Source: Longimicrobiales bacterium (lineage in GTDB: Bacteria; Gemmatimonadota; Gemmatimonadetes; Longimicrobiales; Gaopeijiaceae). Taken from it: a stretch of DNA of 64,000 nucleotides. Position numbers and translations under genes: made by a program. A model generated the notes under the pieces. It was not told the origin of the DNA and made no database searches. It worked only from the letters and a program-made list of their open reading frames with translations. How positions within the stretch are numbered: position 1 is the stretch's first letter; the number at the start of each line of letters is the position of its first letter. Below are positions 14,104 through 30,536 of the stretch, one piece after another. The stretch is from positions 576,001 to 640,000 of the forward strand of contig OZ220732.1 in assembly GCA_965116905.1 (NCBI GenBank), written 5' to 3'.

Positions 14104-14236
14104 GTTTGGTTCTCCGGGGGTGGCTTCCAATGCCTGTCGATAAGCAGTGAGTGGCCCACCACTAATACAAGGGACCTCGTCGCGGCAAAAGCTCGGCTCG
14201 CCAAGCCACGGGGTCAGCTTGGCAGGCCACGCTCGA

Positions 14237-14253
14237 TGTGTAATCTTTACACA
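14237..14253. promoter_or_regulatory. Inverted-repeat operator candidate for the downstream TA pair
   Basis: tgtgtaa-tct-ttacaca, 28 bp upstream of the antitoxin ATG. Confidence 0.6.
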
Positions 14254-14281
14254 CTTGCCGAGACACCTGGAGGTGAACGAC

Positions 14282-14512
14282 ATGGCTCGACGGGTCAACA
14301 TCATGATGGACGATGACTCCTGGCGCATTATCGGGAGGCTGCCGCGCGGTACTCGCAGCCGGGCCGTCAACGCCGCCATCCGGGAGTGGGCGGGTGTCTC
14401 CATGAGGCGGGAAGCCTCTGCCCGGATGGACGCATTGCGCGCGCGCTTGCCGGCGGTTGACACGTGCCAGATCGTCCAATGGATTCGGGAGGAGCGGGAA
14501 CGGCGGCCGTGA
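14282..14512 (+). CDS. Antitoxin, ribbon-helix-helix-like
   Basis: GGAGGTG RBS; MARRVNIMMDDD...RSRAVNAAIREW; GTGA overlap with the PIN gene. Confidence 0.8.
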   Translation: MARRVNIMMDDDSWRIIGRLPRGTRSRAVNAAIREWAGVSMRREASARMDALRARLPAVDTCQIVQWIREERERRP

Positions 14513-14937
14513 TCGTAACGCCCGACGCATCGGTTCTTCTCAAGTGGGTTCTGCCGGGCGACGACGAGCAGGACACGGACGCGGCGCTCGCCCTGCGTGA
14601 CGAAGCGGTGAGCGGGAAGCTTGAGCTGGTCGTTCCCCAGCTCTGGATCTACGAGGTGGGAAACACGCTGGCGAGACGGTTCCCCGATGACGCCGACGAA
14701 CTTCTCGCATCGCTGGTCGACTTCGGCCTGACCGAGGCCCGACTGGACGCCGACTGGAGAACGCGGGCGGTGTCCTTGTCCGTGAGGTACGGCGTCGCGT
14801 TCTACGACGCGGGGTACCATGCCGTGGCGCTCGAGCTGGATGGTGTGTTCGTCACCGCCGACGAACGATACGTGCGCCGCGCGGCGGGCGCCGGCAGCAT
14901 CTCAACGTTGCGGGCCTGGCGAACGGATTCCTCCTAG
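14509..14937 (+). CDS. vapC: Type II TA toxin, VapC/PIN domain
   Basis: PDASVLLKW, PQLWIYEVGN, FYDAGYHAVA...FVTAD. Confidence 0.9.
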   Translation: MIVTPDASVLLKWVLPGDDEQDTDAALALRDEAVSGKLELVVPQLWIYEVGNTLARRFPDDADELLASLVDFGLTEARLDADWRTRAVSLSVRYGVAFYDAGYHAVALELDGVFVTADERYVRRAAGAGSISTLRAWRTDSS

Positions 14938-14941
14938 CGCA

Positions 14942-14982
14942 CACCCCCGGGCTCGTCCTCCACGAACCCCCGGTATCCCAGC
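14942..14982. repeat. 41-bp direct repeat, copy 1 (duplicate of the 3' end of the 16537-19944 gene)
   Basis: Matches 16551-16591 at 40/41 positions. Confidence 0.95.
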
Positions 14983-15087
14983 CACAGGCCATAGACCCTC
15001 TGACCTCGCCGAAGGTTCAGAACCGGACACACTATGTGCTAGAAAACCGGACAGATAAAGTGCTCTCAACAAACCGCCGTAACGTGG

Positions 15088-15116
15088 TTGACTAAGGTCC
15101 CTGGTCCTCCTAGGGT
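15088..15116 (+). promoter_or_regulatory. Sigma70-like promoter candidate for the peptide-propeller cassette
   Basis: TTGACT-17 nt-TAGGGT upstream of the 15183 ORF. Confidence 0.5.
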
Positions 15117-15182
15117 TCAGCCCGCTGGTCGGAGGACCCCCCTCTCGCCACGATTACTCGACTCCCACAGTGAGGAGAATCA

Positions 15183-15380
15183 ATGTCGCGCTTCAACCGT
15201 GTTGCCCTGACCCGCTCCCTCGTAATAGCGATAGCCGTAGTCTTCGCTCCCCTCCTCGCGGCCCAGACCACAACGCCGTGTTTCGACGAGTGCCATGCAG
15301 CCGCAATGGACCGTTACAACGAAGGCATGCCGCTCTTCATGAACGACGCGATTTTCAAGCTGTGCCTCGACCTTTGCTAA
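15183..15380 (+). CDS. Small secreted Cys-rich peptide (CX3C-X23-CX3C)
   Basis: GAGGAG RBS; ~27-aa signal peptide ending LAA|Q; 38-aa mature region with four Cys. Confidence 0.75.
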   Translation: MSRFNRVALTRSLVIAIAVVFAPLLAAQTTTPCFDECHAAAMDRYNEGMPLFMNDAIFKLCLDLC

Positions 15381-15415
15381 CACTGCACCCTGGCGGCAAG
15401 CATCCACTTTCAACT

Positions 15416-16438
15416 GTGGCGGCCGTCTCCGTGGCGGTCGCTGCAGTTGCGTGTGACTCCGGGACGGTCACCACTCCAGCCGTCCCCCTCGCTTCTATCG
15501 CCTCCGTGTCCGCACCGTTTAGCGTTGACACGCGCATCGTGCTAGTGGATGAAGACCTCGTATGCGTGAACAACTCCTTCGAGATGCGAGTCCGGTGTGT
15601 TGACCAGCGCGGCGACCTGGTCGGTGTATTCGGTCGCAGGGGAGAGGGCCCAGGGGAGTTCGAACTGCCACCGAGTCTTGTGCGCGGACCCGACGGCACG
15701 GTTGGCGCCATCTCCATCAACCGGCTTGCCATCTTCACCCCCGGTGGGGATCTGGTTGATGAGATAACCTTACCCGTAGGCTTTCCCCTTCCGGCCGCAA
15801 AGTCGTTTGATACGACTCTTCTGGCCAACTACTACCTGGGCGGGGCCAATATGACCTTGGTAGAGATCGACCTCTCATCCGCCACCGTGCTGTGGGAACG
15901 CCAGGACATCGCCCACATCGCCGCGACCGAGTGCGGCAGCGTTGCACTGGGAGTCGCTTCTCCCTCCGGAGGCTGGACGTTCCCCGCGTGTCAGCGTGAA
16001 CTCGCATTCCTCGACGATCGTGACGCATCCACCGCTACCGCCATCCTGTCTCCAACCTATGCCGAAGAGTTTCCCAACGAACGCGATATCGCGGAGATGC
16101 AAGCCCAGACCCAGCCCTTTGCCTTTCGAGCGGATTTGGACGTGTACAGGGAGACCCCGAAGCGCAATCACCTCAGGGTCGGGTCCCTTGCGTACGACGA
16201 TGAAGGCCGTCTTTGGGTAGCCACGGAACGAGACCGTTCCCGGTTCTCCTATTTCGACCTCTATGTCGGCACCGAGCACGTCGGCTCGGTGCGGATCAAG
16301 GATCGCCTTCTGGGCTACGACCTCTATGGTTCCACCCTGGCTGCCCTGGTCGAGCGCGACCCCGACACCGACGGAATAGGACGCCGTGCCGTGGACTGGT
16401 ACGATATTGGGCCTCTGGATTTCGGTGTGGGACAATAG
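15416..16438 (+). CDS. 6-bladed beta-propeller (NHL-like) lipoprotein
   Basis: Lipobox AVAC; FGRRGEGPGEF; DDEGRLWVAT. Exact start uncertain. Confidence 0.8.
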   Translation: MAAVSVAVAAVACDSGTVTTPAVPLASIASVSAPFSVDTRIVLVDEDLVCVNNSFEMRVRCVDQRGDLVGVFGRRGEGPGEFELPPSLVRGPDGTVGAISINRLAIFTPGGDLVDEITLPVGFPLPAAKSFDTTLLANYYLGGANMTLVEIDLSSATVLWERQDIAHIAATECGSVALGVASPSGGWTFPACQRELAFLDDRDASTATAILSPTYAEEFPNERDIAEMQAQTQPFAFRADLDVYRETPKRNHLRVGSLAYDDEGRLWVATERDRSRFSYFDLYVGTEHVGSVRIKDRLLGYDLYGSTLAALVERDPDTDGIGRRAVDWYDIGPLDFGVGQ

Positions 16439-16536: not shown

Positions 16537-19500
16537 CTACCGATTCTCGCCACCCCCGGGCTCGTCCTCCACGAACCCGCGGTATCCCAGCGCCCGCTGC
16601 CGCGGCCAGACCTCGTCGAGGGTCTCCGCGTCGAACAGCCTCCCGTTGATCATCACCTGCTCGACCAATTCGGTATTCCGGAGATCGTCGAGGGGGTTGC
16701 GCGACAGGATGGCCAGGTCGGCCAGCTTGCCGGGCTCGATCGAGCCGAGTTCGGTCTCGAGGCCGATGCCGTTGGCGCCGAAGATCGTGGCGGACTTGAG
16801 CGCGTCGTGGTTCGACATGCCGCCCGAGGCGACCATCCACAGCTCCCAGTGGAACCCGAGGCCCTGGAGCTGGCCGTGGCTGCCGACCCCAGCGAAGCCG
16901 CCGTCAGCGACCACATCGGCCAGGAAGCGGGCGTGGTCTTCGAAGACGTACTCCTCGTCGATCGCCCACGCGACCGAACCCGCCGCGCCGGCGCGCCGCC
17001 GGGTGCGGGAGTCGAGGGTCTCGCGGGGTGTGAATCGCACCAGGCGCTCGTTGCCGAGCACGTCCTCGGTCGTGAACCAGTAGATCTCGCCCATGGGGCC
17101 GCCGAAGGAGACGATCAGCGTCGGCGTGTTCAGGACCTTTGTCGCCGAAAAGAGGCGGACGACATCGTGATAGAGGGGGTAGATGGGGACGTTGTGTTCG
17201 ATCCCGGGATAGCCGTCCATTGCGTGCGTCAGGTCGGCCTGATAGTCGAGTCCGGCCTCGGTCGTCGGCATGAGCTCGAGTTCGCGCGCCGCCATGACGA
17301 GCCACTGTCGCTGCTGGCGGTTCCCCGAGAGGTACATCTTGAACGTCTTGGTGTCGTAGTAGTCCGAGTAGCGCCTGAGGACATTGCGCGCGTGGTCGAG
17401 GTCGCGGATGCCCTCCAGCGCCTGGTAGTTGCCGAAGACCCCCGGGCCGGTGGAGAAGATGCGCGGTCCCAGGATGTCGCCTGACCGCACCCGGTCGGCG
17501 TAGGTGAGGACGTCCGAGACGCCGGTCTGGGGGTCGCGTGTGGTCGTGACGCCGAACGCCAGGTTGGCGAGGTAGCCCCACGGCTGCGTGGTGTGGACGC
17601 CGGCCGGCGGACGCAGGTGGGCGTGCGTGTCGACGAAGCCGGGCGTGATGGTCATGCCGGAGACGTCGCGGACCTCGGCGCCGTCGGGGACGGAGAGCGT
17701 GCCGGATGGGCCCACCGCGGCGATGCGGTGGCCGTCGATGAGGATGTCTCCCCGTTCGATGACGTCGTCCCCGCGCATCGTGATGACGCGTGCGCCGGAG
17801 AGCAGGAGCGTCCCGGTGGGCAGGTCGCGGGGGACGTCGAGGGCGACGCGGACTTCGGTGGGCTGGTAGCGGGGGTTGGAGGAGGAGGACGCGGCTGGAT
17901 CGTCGGTCGCCGCAGGGTCGGCGGCGTCCGCAGGGTCGGCCTCGTCGGACTCCGCAGCCTCCGCAGCCTCGACGCTGTCCGCGAATGCCTCCGCGTCGGC
18001 CAGGTTGTAGCGGAAGTACGCGTTCCCGAGTGCCCAAACCGCCTCGGTGCCGTCGCTGCTCCAAGACTGGAACTCGCCGCCGGACTCGGTGATGCGGGTG
18101 ACCGGGACCGCTGCGCCGGAGGGACTCCGGACCGAGACTGTCGGGGCCTCGGCGCCCACCTGTGGGACGGTCACGAGGTAGAGGTCGTTGCCCACCTTGG
18201 CCAGCGCCCGCCCCCCGGCGGGTGACACCCGAATCGAGGAGGCGTTGGCCGGGGGACCGCTACGGTTGGCCGAGAAGCCGGTGACCTTGAGGTGTTCCTT
18301 CTCGTCGGTGCCGTCCCAGCGGATCGAGACCAGGCCGCGCGTGCCCGCGTGCAGGTAGATGCGGTCGGGTTGGTCGGTGCGGAAGTGCGGCTGGGAGCGT
18401 CCCAGCGCCTCCGCCACGATTGTCGCCGCGGCGGGGGCGCCGCTGCCCGCCCCGTACCAGACGATGTCGGCCTGGCCACCGCCGCCGGCACCTTGCAGAC
18501 GTGCGCGCACCGGTCGCTGCAGCGCCACGATGCGGTCGCCGTCTGGAGACCAGGCGGGGGATTGCAGATAGCGGGCCGCGTCCGACACGCGCCGGGCGCC
18601 GTCGCCATTCGCAGGGATCTCCCAGAGATGGCCACCGTCCGGCTCACGCCAGCTCACCGCCGCCAATGTCTCGCCGTCGGGCGACCACGCGGGATGGAAC
18701 ACGGCACCGTCGACCTCCGCGCCGATCCGGCGCGGGACACCTCCACCTGCTTCCATCACATACAGCTGGCCAAGCGCGGTGAAGGCGACCGTGCCGCCGT
18801 CCGGCGACAGGGCGACCTCGCGGATCTGGCGCGCGCGGAAGGTGGGCGTGTCCTCGACCGGGTAGTCGAAGTCGAGGCGGGGGCCCGCGTGGATGACCAC
18901 GTCGGCCGTGAAGGGGATCTCGGTGGGCTCGTTCGCGTCCGTCTCGCCGGCGTTTGTCTCACCGGCATCCAGCGGCACGCGCCACAGGCGGCCGCCGTAC
19001 GAGGCGATCAGCGCGGTGCCATCGGGCGTGAAGGCGTAGCCGGGGAGGAGGTCGAGGGTCGCGCGGCTCTCCATGTCGTCGCGCTGCACGGGGTAGACGA
19101 GCCAGCGTTCGTTGCCGGTGGCGAGGTCGCGGGCGCGGAGACCCGTGGCATCCTCGTGGCGGGAACCGTAGACCAGCGTGGCGCCGTCGGGGGATACGGC
19201 CGGGCGGAACCCGGAACCGTAGCGGCCGGTGACCGTAGGGCTGCGGCCTGTCTCGCGGTCATAGCGGACGAGCTGGTACTTCGGGAAGGCCGCGTCGTAG
19301 GTCCAGTCGCGCGTCCCCTGCGCGAGGTAGATGTAGCGGCCTGTGGGATCGAAGGCGGCCCCGATGGCCTTGAGCTGTTCGGGCTCGTCGATCAGGGCGA
19401 TCCCGCTGCCCCCGTCGCGGTGGAAGAGCCACGGCTTCGCGGCGCCGCCGAGCGGGCTGAAGGTGCGGGACGCGACGAGGTACTGCCCGTCCGGGGACCA

Positions 19501-19944
19501 CTCGGGCGAAGTGTAGAGGTTGTCGTTGCCGCGGGTAATCTGGGTCGTGTCGGAGCCGTCGGTGCTCAGGACCCAGAGGTTCTGGCCGCCGCTCCTGTCC
19601 GAGACGAAGACGATTTCGCTTCCGTCGGGGCTGAAGCGCGGCTGGCTCTCGAAGGCGGGGCCGGTGAGGAGCGGGGTGGCGGCGCCGCCGTCGACGGGGA
19701 GCGTGTAGAGGTCGCCGAGCAAGTCGAAGACGAGGGTGGCGCCGTCCGGGCTGATGTCGACGGAGATCCAGGAGCCCTCGCTGGTGGTGAACCGGATCTC
19801 GCGGGTGGGCTCGAGGGGGAGGGAGGCGGTGGCGAGGGAGTCGGCCTGCGCCGCGGTGCCGGCGGACTCCTGGGCGTGGGCGGGCGCCGCCGGGAGGGAC
19901 GCGATAAATGCGATGGCGACGAAGGTGAGGACGAGGCTCTTCAT
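16537..19944 (-). CDS. Secreted amidohydrolase with N-terminal TolB/PD40 beta-propellers
   Basis: Signal peptide; EGSWISVDISPDG and repeated SPDG motifs; PGFVDTHAH, GSHGQLQG, GSIEPGKLAD. Confidence 0.9.
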   Translation of the reverse strand: MKSLVLTFVAIAFIASLPAAPAHAQESAGTAAQADSLATASLPLEPTREIRFTTSEGSWISVDISPDGATLVFDLLGDLYTLPVDGGAATPLLTGPAFESQPRFSPDGSEIVFVSDRSGGQNLWVLSTDGSDTTQITRGNDNLYTSPEWSPDGQYLVASRTFSPLGGAAKPWLFHRDGGSGIALIDEPEQLKAIGAAFDPTGRYIYLAQGTRDWTYDAAFPKYQLVRYDRETGRSPTVTGRYGSGFRPAVSPDGATLVYGSRHEDATGLRARDLATGNERWLVYPVQRDDMESRATLDLLPGYAFTPDGTALIASYGGRLWRVPLDAGETNAGETDANEPTEIPFTADVVIHAGPRLDFDYPVEDTPTFRARQIREVALSPDGGTVAFTALGQLYVMEAGGGVPRRIGAEVDGAVFHPAWSPDGETLAAVSWREPDGGHLWEIPANGDGARRVSDAARYLQSPAWSPDGDRIVALQRPVRARLQGAGGGGQADIVWYGAGSGAPAAATIVAEALGRSQPHFRTDQPDRIYLHAGTRGLVSIRWDGTDEKEHLKVTGFSANRSGPPANASSIRVSPAGGRALAKVGNDLYLVTVPQVGAEAPTVSVRSPSGAAVPVTRITESGGEFQSWSSDGTEAVWALGNAYFRYNLADAEAFADSVEAAEAAESDEADPADAADPAATDDPAASSSSNPRYQPTEVRVALDVPRDLPTGTLLLSGARVITMRGDDVIERGDILIDGHRIAAVGPSGTLSVPDGAEVRDVSGMTITPGFVDTHAHLRPPAGVHTTQPWGYLANLAFGVTTTRDPQTGVSDVLTYADRVRSGDILGPRIFSTGPGVFGNYQALEGIRDLDHARNVLRRYSDYYDTKTFKMYLSGNRQQRQWLVMAARELELMPTTEAGLDYQADLTHAMDGYPGIEHNVPIYPLYHDVVRLFSATKVLNTPTLIVSFGGPMGEIYWFTTEDVLGNERLVRFTPRETLDSRTRRRAGAAGSVAWAIDEEYVFEDHARFLADVVADGGFAGVGSHGQLQGLGFHWELWMVASGGMSNHDALKSATIFGANGIGLETELGSIEPGKLADLAILSRNPLDDLRNTELVEQVMINGRLFDAETLDEVWPRQRALGYRGFVEDEPGGGENR
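16551..16591. repeat. 41-bp direct repeat, copy 2 (within the last codons of the amidohydrolase gene)
   Basis: Matches 14942-14982. Confidence 0.95.
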
Positions 19945-19949
19945 TTCGG

Positions 19950-20414
19950 TTACTCCCCGAGGCTGTGGCGCCGACGCCGTTCCGGCACGCGAGGCACCGT
20001 CTCGAACCCGGCCTGAGAGAAATGGCGATCGGTCGTCAGGGCCCTGGCCAGACCCAGTTCCTGCATCACGACGAAGCTTGTGCAATCGGTAAACGAGAAG
20101 TCCCTGTCGGTCCACTCGAAGAAGCGCGTCCGGGCTTTCTCGGCCCGCGAGGCATCGATGCGTTCCCAGCGGATCCGGGAACTGGCGTCGATCTGGGCCC
20201 ACCACTCCTCGGCCGCACGCAGCCCCAGCCGAACCCGAATGAGCGTCAGCGTCTCGTCGATCACATAGTCGGTCGAGACCAGGATCCCCCCGCTCTCCAG
20301 GCACACGTCGCGTTCCCGACGGCTGGCTTGATGCGCCGGGTCAGCGGCGTCGGCCATGGCCATCCAGCCGGCCGTGTCGACGAAGAGCGCCCGGCCGCTC
20401 GGTGGGCTACTCAC
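19950..20414 (-). CDS. vapC: Type II TA toxin, VapC/PIN domain (VapC20-like)
   Basis: LFVDTAGW, STDYVIDET, FSFTDCTSFVVM, LTTDRHF. GTG start overlaps the antitoxin end (alternative ATG at 20426). Confidence 0.9.
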   Translation of the reverse strand: MSSPPSGRALFVDTAGWMAMADAADPAHQASRRERDVCLESGGILVSTDYVIDETLTLIRVRLGLRAAEEWWAQIDASSRIRWERIDASRAEKARTRFFEWTDRDFSFTDCTSFVVMQELGLARALTTDRHFSQAGFETVPRVPERRRRHSLGE

Positions 20415-20661
20415 CACCCCGACCATACAGAATCCGGTCGTGATCCGCAGAGATCAGCCCGTCGGTCGACTGGCCCACCGCTTCCGCCCCGTAGAGCGAA
20501 TCGTCCTCCAGGGGGCCGAGAGCGACTCCGCCATGCAGCGGCACGATCCGAAAGGCCGGGCGGCTCCGGTAGAGCACGGTGAAGTGCTCTCCGCGTTTCA
20601 CCCGCTCGATGACACGCCTCATTTCGTGCCGCAGCGTCTTGACGTTGATGGTGTTGGACAT
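20407..20661 (-). CDS. Type II TA antitoxin, Phd/YefM family
   Basis: INVKTLRHEMRRVIERVKRGEHFTVLYRSRPAFRIVP. Confidence 0.85.
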   Translation of the reverse strand: MSNTINVKTLRHEMRRVIERVKRGEHFTVLYRSRPAFRIVPLHGGVALGPLEDDSLYGAEAVGQSTDGLISADHDRILYGRGGE

Positions 20662-20803
20662 CGGCGAACCCCCGGACGCTGCCTGGTGAGCGACTAAAGA
20701 TAAACTTAAGATAACCTTTGGTGATTGGTTGCGCGCCAAGCTACCTCGATTCTAGCGTACTCCCCGAGAGCTTTCGATCCTGTCGCGCCGCAAAGGAGAT
20801 CCC

Positions 20804-29603: not shown

Positions 29604-30536
29604 TTGCAGGATCCCGCGTTCAAAACGGTATTCTGCCATCCCGCGGCAATCGAGAGGTTGGTTCGTGGGTACGCTCCGGAGCATGCCGACAGGATCGACT
29701 TCTCGACGCTGGAGAAACTGGACGCCGAACTGGTCGGCGAGGCGCTTGTGCGGCGCTACCCCGACATGCTGTGGATCGCCCGGACCAACGACCGCGACAC
29801 CTCGGTGGTAGTCCTGCTGGAGTTCCAGGGTGCTCAGGATCGACTAATGGCGCTCCGGATGGCGGTCTACCAGCTCCTGACTGTCCAGCAACTGCTGCGG
29901 CGCCGACGATCATTGCGCTCCGACCGCTCGCTGGAGGTCCTGTCGTTCGTGATCCATCACGGCGAGGGAGTCTGGAAGGCGGCCCCGAGGCTTCGGAGAC
30001 TATTTCCGCATTGGGTGCCGGGCGACTACAGGCTGATCTCCCGCGGCGCGGGAGGATTCCAGGGCGATCTGGCCCAGACGATTCTGCAGCTGGAGCGAGA
30101 TCGATCTGTCGAAGGCACGCTGGCAGTCCTTGCGGAGTTGCGGCGGATTGCCGATGAGAGCAGAAGCGACTACGACCACCTGATGGCCGAGTGCGTTGCG
30201 GAAATGCTAGTATTGACGAGACGGATCACAAGAGCGCAGCTACGGGAGGTGAGGACGATGGCACAGGTGGACACTACGTATCAGCGGAGCCTGGAGGAGT
30301 TTGGGCAGAAGTGGTTTCGCCAGGGGCGCGATGAGGGGATCCGCCAGGGGCGTGATGAGGGGCAGGCCGCGATGTTGGAAGAATTGGCCTGCGAGAAGTT
30401 CGGTCCCGAGGCGGCCCGGCAGGTGTCTCGTCTGGTCGGACAGGTCTCGGTCTCCGGGCAAATGTCGATAGCCGTGAAGGCAGTGCTCGAGTCCACTACC
30501 GCCGAAGAGTTCCTGGCCCGCCTACGGAGACTCTGA
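29604..30536 (+). CDS. Rpn/YhgA-like PD-(D/E)XK nuclease (putative transposase family)
   Basis: DPAFKTVF.HP, DFSTLEKL, RRYPDMLW, LLEFQ, MALRM; C-terminal RQGRDEG repeats. Confidence 0.88.
   Translation: MQDPAFKTVFCHPAAIERLVRGYAPEHADRIDFSTLEKLDAELVGEALVRRYPDMLWIARTNDRDTSVVVLLEFQGAQDRLMALRMAVYQLLTVQQLLRRRRSLRSDRSLEVLSFVIHHGEGVWKAAPRLRRLFPHWVPGDYRLISRGAGGFQGDLAQTILQLERDRSVEGTLAVLAELRRIADESRSDYDHLMAECVAEMLVLTRRITRAQLREVRTMAQVDTTYQRSLEEFGQKWFRQGRDEGIRQGRDEGQAAMLEELACEKFGPEAARQVSRLVGQVSVSGQMSIAVKAVLESTTAEEFLARLRRL
30258..30536 (+). CDS. Putative intragenic small Rpn antitoxin (Rpn-S, 92 aa), in frame
   Basis: Internal GGAGGTG (30245-30251) 6 nt before the in-frame ATG at 30258. Confidence 0.7.
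   Translation: MAQVDTTYQRSLEEFGQKWFRQGRDEGIRQGRDEGQAAMLEELACEKFGPEAARQVSRLVGQVSVSGQMSIAVKAVLESTTAEEFLARLRRL
30318..30362. repeat. 24-bp tandem repeat in the Rpn C-terminus
   Basis: cgccaggggcgYgatgagggg x2. Confidence 0.9.

Follow-up and report, generated by a model that had tools for sequence, protein, structure and literature searches.

In Bacteroidota, small proteins of the NVEALA family (PF14055) sit beside six-bladed propellers of the DUF5128 family (PF17170). Effector-immunity systems usually show an effector gene followed by the gene for its binder, abutting genes, orphan binders, a variable interface and mobility. Among small peptides with two helices, the alpha-hairpinins are described in PMC7191063 as having Cys1-Cys4/Cys2-Cys3 disulfides. 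The locus described here has points in common with each of these. It lies in a window of 64,000 nucleotides (G000:C1:576001-640000, where G000 is the bacterium's own genome; coordinates are those of the window unless marked G000:C1) and comprises a gene for a small peptide with an export signal, placed directly before the gene for a propeller lipoprotein.

The peptide gene, the propeller gene and their insertion site

The peptide gene (15183..15380, plus strand) starts with ATG and has 65 codons for a 65-aa precursor. Codons 1-27 (15183-15263) encode a signal peptide with a hydrophobic N-terminus that ends in LAA before the Q of the mature part, a cleavage site placed by reading of the sequence alone, and export would be through Sec. 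The mature part (codons 28-65, 15264-15377) is an acidic four-cysteine stretch of 38 residues, predicted to form a helical hairpin, with the spacing CX3C-X23-CX3C and Cys as its last residue. As read from the letters, this frame agrees with the Sec signal and the 38-aa mature peptide proposed in the initial annotation, and the strong ribosome-binding site claimed there is found as GAGGAG (15172..15177, plus strand), which stands 5 nt 5′ of the peptide ATG and is kept in related copies. The peptide gene is hidden, as had been noticed, by a longer frame: a 422-aa ORF from GTG 15170 masks it, and the extension of this ORF runs into stops in 6 of the 9 related loci examined and is open in 3. A candidate promoter had also been named; TTGACT-17-TAGGGT is present at 15088..15116 (plus strand), scores 8/12 and is kept in close relatives, but a promoter scan called 0 sites, this one lying under its threshold. 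Because the scan missed it and a like pattern, TTGA(C/T)-N17-TAGnnT, is found by eye 5′ of some unrelated peptide copies, the promoter remains a candidate. In one RNA run labelled sponge metagenome (share 0.05), a single 214-nt contig of depth 4 aligns with the 5′ part of the propeller gene with 8 differences and no contig covers the peptide, a result that speaks neither for nor against expression and says nothing of habitat.

Directly downstream, as described earlier, lies the gene for an NHL-type six-bladed propeller lipoprotein of about 354 aa (15374..16438, plus strand; lipobox Cys codon 15452-15454). Its start is either TTG 15374, which overlaps the peptide stop, or CTG 15383, where close homologs carry ATG; translation of the two genes may be coupled. 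The AlphaFold2 model (pLDDT 89) is all-beta with a helical insert at residues 236-259. Its best structural match is the NHL domain of Brat (1q7f; Z 21.7, rmsd 3.2, 254 residues aligned), Foldseek matches Thin (6d69) at E 6e-9, PAL is among the fold matches at Z 16.2, and the propeller profile matches NHL domains at E 3e-26 with one blade covered. The model, the match to Brat and the lipobox Cys27, whose conservation across 94 propeller homologs is at least 90%, uphold the earlier description of a six-bladed propeller lipoprotein. The propeller has no Pfam or NCBIfam family (0 at E 0.001; the DUF5128 cut-off was not reached), and in the Atlas clusters nearest to it 59-84% of members carry DUF5128.

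Within the genus, 33 of 36 genomes have propellers of this subfamily, against 0 of 24 genomes from two other families of the order. Longimicrobiales and Gemmatimonadetes MAG records hold propellers that are 96-97% identical, and subfamily propellers without the peptide are also found in one Rhodothermales and one Gammaproteobacteria record. Four true subfamily propellers (306-508 bits) are encoded in the bacterium's own genome. The window's other propellers had been proposed as orphan partners, a suggestion that finds no support: the five found by profile match one blade only, at 28-42 bits, and the same five have no signal-peptide ORF upstream. Judged from sequence, the candidates for real orphans are the three subfamily paralogs elsewhere in the genome.

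The pair forms a 1.6-kb insert between two 41-nt direct repeats that are 98% identical and correspond to the last bases of an amidohydrolase gene (16537-20304, minus strand). The left copy (14942..14982) is the displaced original 3′ end of that gene and marks the left border of the insert; the right copy (16551..16591) lies within the present 3′ end and marks the right border. At this site the cassette is present in 4 of 30 related loci, and six have an empty site, with a PIN toxin gene directly against the amidohydrolase end and one repeat copy; others carry different propellers or unrelated genes. The insert has 60% G+C, against 67% for the window, and contains no recombinase; insertion-sequence genes lie near four related loci. 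Two 20-nt tandem copies (family D3; 15021..15064), alike in close relatives and without a second copy in the genome, presumably resemble an insertion-sequence end. Cassettes bordered by comparable duplications of a gene end occur at asnB (three loci) and at one further gene. Such flanking repeats are not general: of 27 other loci, 4 have them, in two settings.

Several features of the surroundings deserve mention. On either side of the amidohydrolase gene is a PIN toxin gene (14147-14937 and 19950-20739) preceded by a small partner, and the first of these modules is missing at the same site in several relatives. A gene of the rRNA adenine dimethylase family (PF00398; 20718-21626) has a PIN module on one side and a propeller gene on the other, and a YhgA-like (Transposase_31) gene lies at 29604-30536. 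In genomes G068 and G304, which belong to different genera, two cassettes (L172/L171 and L082/L188) are 99.8-100% identical over 1.8-3.0 kb, by either recent transfer or a binning effect. At G021:C2:537383-540135 (L101), two cassettes lie in tandem with an ISNCY transposase upstream, the second consisting of an intact peptide gene, then a broken further copy whose sequence is close to that of the window's peptide, and then the propeller. At G153:C1:965000-969800 (L094), three cassettes stand in tandem, in one of which both the peptide and the binding face are switched, and a choice-of-anchor B family gene or fragment lies near the cassette at L094, L096, L099 and L102.

The peptide family and its pairing with the propeller

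A profile search with the peptide matched 14 of 53 genomes in the genus at E 4e-6 or better and 22 of 401 in the phylum, one of the latter matches being a false positive. By family, the phylum matches fall in 15 of 69 genomes of the bacterium's own family and 6 of 30 of one other, with none in ten others; in its own genome the profile search finds no second member. Among 1.84 billion representatives there were 50 matches at E 0.001, and nearly all of these proteins are short, carry a signal peptide and show the same pattern. Across 50 sequences, conservation reaches at least 90% at the Ala-Gln of the cleavage site, the four Cys, His38 and Met42. The second Cys motif is CX3C in 16 of 48 peptides, CX4C in 31 and CX5C in 1, the spacer has 23 residues in 26 of the 48, and many peptides carry Gly-containing tails. 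Three close pairs, in which each class has 2-6 changes, give dN/dS estimates of 0.15-0.30; for a second subgroup the estimates are 0.30-0.88. All 48 scored mature peptides are acidic (net negative, median -7), and this counts against a classic antimicrobial of the cationic kind, the cationic alpha-hairpinin type included; between the toxin and the ligand that the initial annotation had offered as alternatives, the sequence is otherwise compatible with both.

AlphaFold2 models the peptide as a helical hairpin (H32-46 and H51-64, pLDDT above 90), and a fold search with this model, signal peptide included, matched nothing more specific than generic helices, with Z no higher than 5.3. The hairpin-type fold suggested earlier is predicted, but descent from plant alpha-hairpinins is unsupported: the family has no match in Pfam, NCBIfam, PADLOC or the PDB, where a profile search returned 0 sequences at E 1. 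No toxin family match was found, and the Atlas matches are unnamed and all below 0.9. A pattern-seeded locus search produced no find among 601 candidates, and 7999 candidates of 155-2000 aa included no longer or fused form of the peptide, which is weak evidence. One peptide (P0052) lacks Cys2 alone, and three tandem copies in G153 have lost both Cys1 and Cys4 and are two-cysteine peptides; this joint loss fits a Cys1-Cys4/Cys2-Cys3 disulfide pattern. Such bonds would be formed by the cell's general VKOR/DsbA-type system, and the genome encodes one VKOR and four DsbA-like domains. A RiPP-modifying enzyme is absent from the 47 window ORFs, as had been stated, and also from 82 flanking ORFs of related loci. 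We conclude that this is a real, new family of acidic four-cysteine peptides with export signals and a predicted cognate propeller partner. In the literature within our coverage, outside which most subscription papers fall, we found no description of such a peptide-propeller pair, and the main text of PMC10469786 has no occurrence of propeller, peptide, secreted or RiPP.

Homologous small ORFs near propellers, without which the original proposal would have had little to rest on, are found at 42 of 42 evaluable peptide copies, each directly upstream of this propeller subfamily, in two Gemmatimonadota families. These 42 comprise 23 copies from the genus profile search, 13 from a second search and 6 from the phylum search of 401 genomes; one of them was checked by coordinates against propeller matches, and the near-identity of the G068 and G304 loci means that those rows are not independent of each other. 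Left out were G339 (contig end within the peptide), G186 (match inside a long protein), G118 (match to the signal peptide only), 13 weak genus-search matches with E above 0.001 (among them the broken second peptide copy of G021), and a further 2 weak matches that lack a propeller. Two of the 42 partner propellers are frameshifted (L048, L097). For each of the 17 peptide copies in the set G000-G036 (17 of 17), a propeller match lies at a distance of -3 to 153 nt, an outcome with a chance of ~1.5e-4 per copy.

Seen from the propellers, a peptide was detected at 19 of 145 matches (17 in the G000-G036 set and 2 from the phylum search), a minimum count, as it depends on how sensitive the profile is. 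In a quick tree built from a set enriched for peptide-bearing loci, the propellers that have a peptide are dispersed, with 17 changes among 68 rows. Remnants of the peptide precede three orphan propellers (L115, L016 and L028); L115 has lost its ribosome-binding site and the greater part of the peptide to a deletion but retains a propeller that is 96% identical, and L148, with the same deletion, was counted once with it. The scatter over the tree and the remnants before orphans suggest that the pairing is ancestral and that the peptide has been lost repeatedly. No third gene recurs among the 82 flanking ORFs of related loci; specifically, no sigma factor, kinase, TonB-dependent receptor, transducer, transporter, exporter or enzyme is recurrent there.

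Across the genome, 106 propeller-profile hits include only 2 with a signal-peptide Cys ORF directly upstream under a strict filter. Candidate small signal-peptide ORFs with at least four Cys number 20 in a scan of the genome and belong to several unrelated types; 7 of the 20 lie within 500 nt of a propeller, against a background of 5.8%. Small Cys ORFs lie at G000:C1 364753, 714311, 727511, 729070, 751068, 755595, 945359, 948322, 950825, 2678336, 2797771 and 3928685, many of them beside propeller genes, and DsbA-like domains at G000:C1 750441 and 946044 adjoin two small Cys ORFs. A row of three small, hydrophobic ORFs, related to one another, occupies G000:C1 3900681-3901963 (minus strand); they carry GCxGC-like motifs and are bacteriocin-like by appearance.

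The predicted complex and the possible roles of the pair

Prediction of the complex, which had been put forward as a check, gave 0.91 for peptide and propeller in three runs, and the best of 3 controls gave 0.02; these controls included no non-cognate propeller from the same subfamily, and close cousins often pass this tool. The score mark is reached by 116 of 157 solved pairs and 2 of 215 mismatched pairs, a benchmark that is rough here since alignments of our own were supplied for both chains. The runs share at least 89% of contacts, with a partner pLDDT of at least 82. In the model, the hairpin turn (residues 38-62) rests on 29 propeller residues, 26 of which are in loops assigned to the top face. 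We think it probable that peptide and propeller are a physical cognate pair.

The predicted interface is hypervariable, with a modal frequency of 0.33 versus 0.62 for the rest. In G153, the copy whose peptide differs has changes at 14 of the 29 interface positions, versus 42 of 286 elsewhere, a switch that is one event at non-independent sites. Across 24 pairs (7 distant pairs out of 31 having been dropped), peptide distance and interface distance show a partial correlation of -0.095, and 295 of 300 random variable-site sets outscored the interface; the test on the top loops was unspecific (0.18 vs 0.24). Saturation may be the cause of this negative outcome.

The order of effector then binder, the abutting genes, the orphans, the decay of the peptide, the variable face and the lack of a transducer lead us to rank first a mobile, strain-variable effector with its cognate immunity protein, although this antagonistic role is a tentative choice that could well be wrong. 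The small exported hairpin, likely disulfide-stapled, would bind the top face of the propeller encoded right behind it. It would harm or block an envelope target in neighbours without a matching propeller, and the producer's own lipoprotein would capture it. Strains could then lose the peptide and keep or collect propellers as protection. The secreted family, the predicted hairpin, the tight pairing and the predicted complex also lend partial support to the broader proposal of the initial annotation, a peptide toxin or ligand with a cognate receptor or immunity protein. Several results speak against an effector with immunity: the peptide has no toxin family match and is uniformly acidic, unlike cationic antimicrobials; no dedicated exporter was found nearby, which leaves passage beyond the periplasm unexplained; peptide distance fails to track interface distance; and a dispensable cap would give the same one-way dependence. 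Two other explanations, a signal and a cap, follow closely, given the acidity, the lack of an exporter and the negative result of the co-evolution test.

In the first of these, the peptide would be a strain-specific kin or density cue, which the propeller relays to a sensor encoded elsewhere and on which orphans eavesdrop. The same pairing, variable interface and predicted complex would serve such a signal, which an acidic, non-lytic peptide suits, and several orphan propellers have interface strings that by eye resemble those of peptide-bearing copies. However, a sigma factor, kinase or TonB-dependent receptor is not recurrent in the flanks and the lipoprotein has no cytoplasmic part, and we regard a signalling role as possible but doubtful. 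In the second, the peptide would plug the binding face of a host- or environment-binding NHL-like propeller during export, or tune it, and be otherwise inactive. This seems unlikely, even though just 2 of the 106 propeller hits have a small Cys ORF directly upstream, the best folds are eukaryotic NHL domains, interface variation does not track the peptide and propellers are intact after peptide loss. Unrelated Cys-peptide families beside propellers present more variety than a simple cap needs, and peptide and interface switched together in G153.

A CX3CH string, which we take to be reminiscent of heme-c attachment, is present in most family members and, with the conserved His38 and Met42, would suit a metal or heme carrier, the propeller then being a carrier or uptake receptor. 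The peptide might otherwise be a host-directed effector resembling channel blockers, as the CX3C-CX3C motif is, by PMC7191063, common to alpha-hairpinins and to scorpion and cone-snail peptides. We consider either improbable: a sequence match or clear fold match is absent, no metal transporter recurs nearby, and the joint loss of Cys1 and Cys4 in G153 is the expectation for disulfides, not for heme attachment. Least credible of all, and by a long way, is a role for the propeller as an enzyme acting on the peptide, in the manner of PAL-type NHL propellers. In favour, PAL is among its fold matches and many peptides have Gly-containing tails; against it, conservation in the propeller is lowest at the predicted binding face, its invariant residues are of structural types (G, C, W, D, R) with no conserved His, and the peptide was not detected at most propellers.

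A more speculative reading takes in the whole propeller complement. The hundred-plus propeller lipoproteins of these bacteria might form a swappable recognition repertoire, in which each subfamily locks one mini-protein family, cassettes cross strains and phyla, and orphan locks read or neutralise the peptides of neighbours; we would not expect this to hold. If true, it would reveal an undescribed peptide-based self/non-self code and give a function to gene pairs of the DUF5128/NVEALA type. These uncultured bacteria have a much enlarged set of such propellers, which have no assigned ligand, and the cassette offers a 38-residue candidate. Because the peptide can be synthesised, the complex is predicted with confidence and natural variant pairs exist, such as the switched pair in G153, the question of the ligand can be tested directly in vitro.

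Comparison with known systems

The parallel with NVEALA pairs, drawn in the initial annotation, stands as an analogy: in both, a small secreted Cys protein is encoded beside a DUF5128-like propeller. It does not extend to sequence, as 0 of 50 peptide family members match the NVEALA profile (PF14055) at E 0.1 and the propeller matches no Pfam or NCBIfam family, and the present cassette has two genes only. With bacteriocins or microcins and with polymorphic toxins and their immunity genes, the cassette shares effector-then-binder order, abutting genes, orphan binders, a variable interface and mobility. In contrast to microcin and bacteriocin systems, it has a Sec-type signal and not a double-glycine leader, no exporter recurs in its flanks, the peptide is acidic, and the predicted binder is a 350-aa propeller lipoprotein.

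The peptide itself appears to be a bacterial four-cysteine hairpin scaffold, as predicted, of a kind that may go unseen beneath a longer overlapping ORF call. Its four-Cys motif on two antiparallel helices, here predicted, is common to the alpha-hairpinins and to the CX3C-Xn-CX3C peptides of scorpions and cone snails, as given in PMC7191063. Unlike the alpha-hairpinins, it is made as a bacterial single-peptide precursor, has a long spacer, carries CX4C as its second motif in 31 of 48 members, is always acidic and has a propeller partner. Neither a PDB sequence match (profile, E 1) nor a Pfam family links the two, and the likeness is likely convergent. The propeller, in turn, resembles the NHL propellers Brat (1q7f), Thin (6d69) and TRIM71 in its fold and in its predicted top-face binding. 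It differs from them in an identity of about 10-15%, in being a lipoprotein, in the helical insert at 236-259, and in that its predicted ligand is a mini-protein and not RNA.
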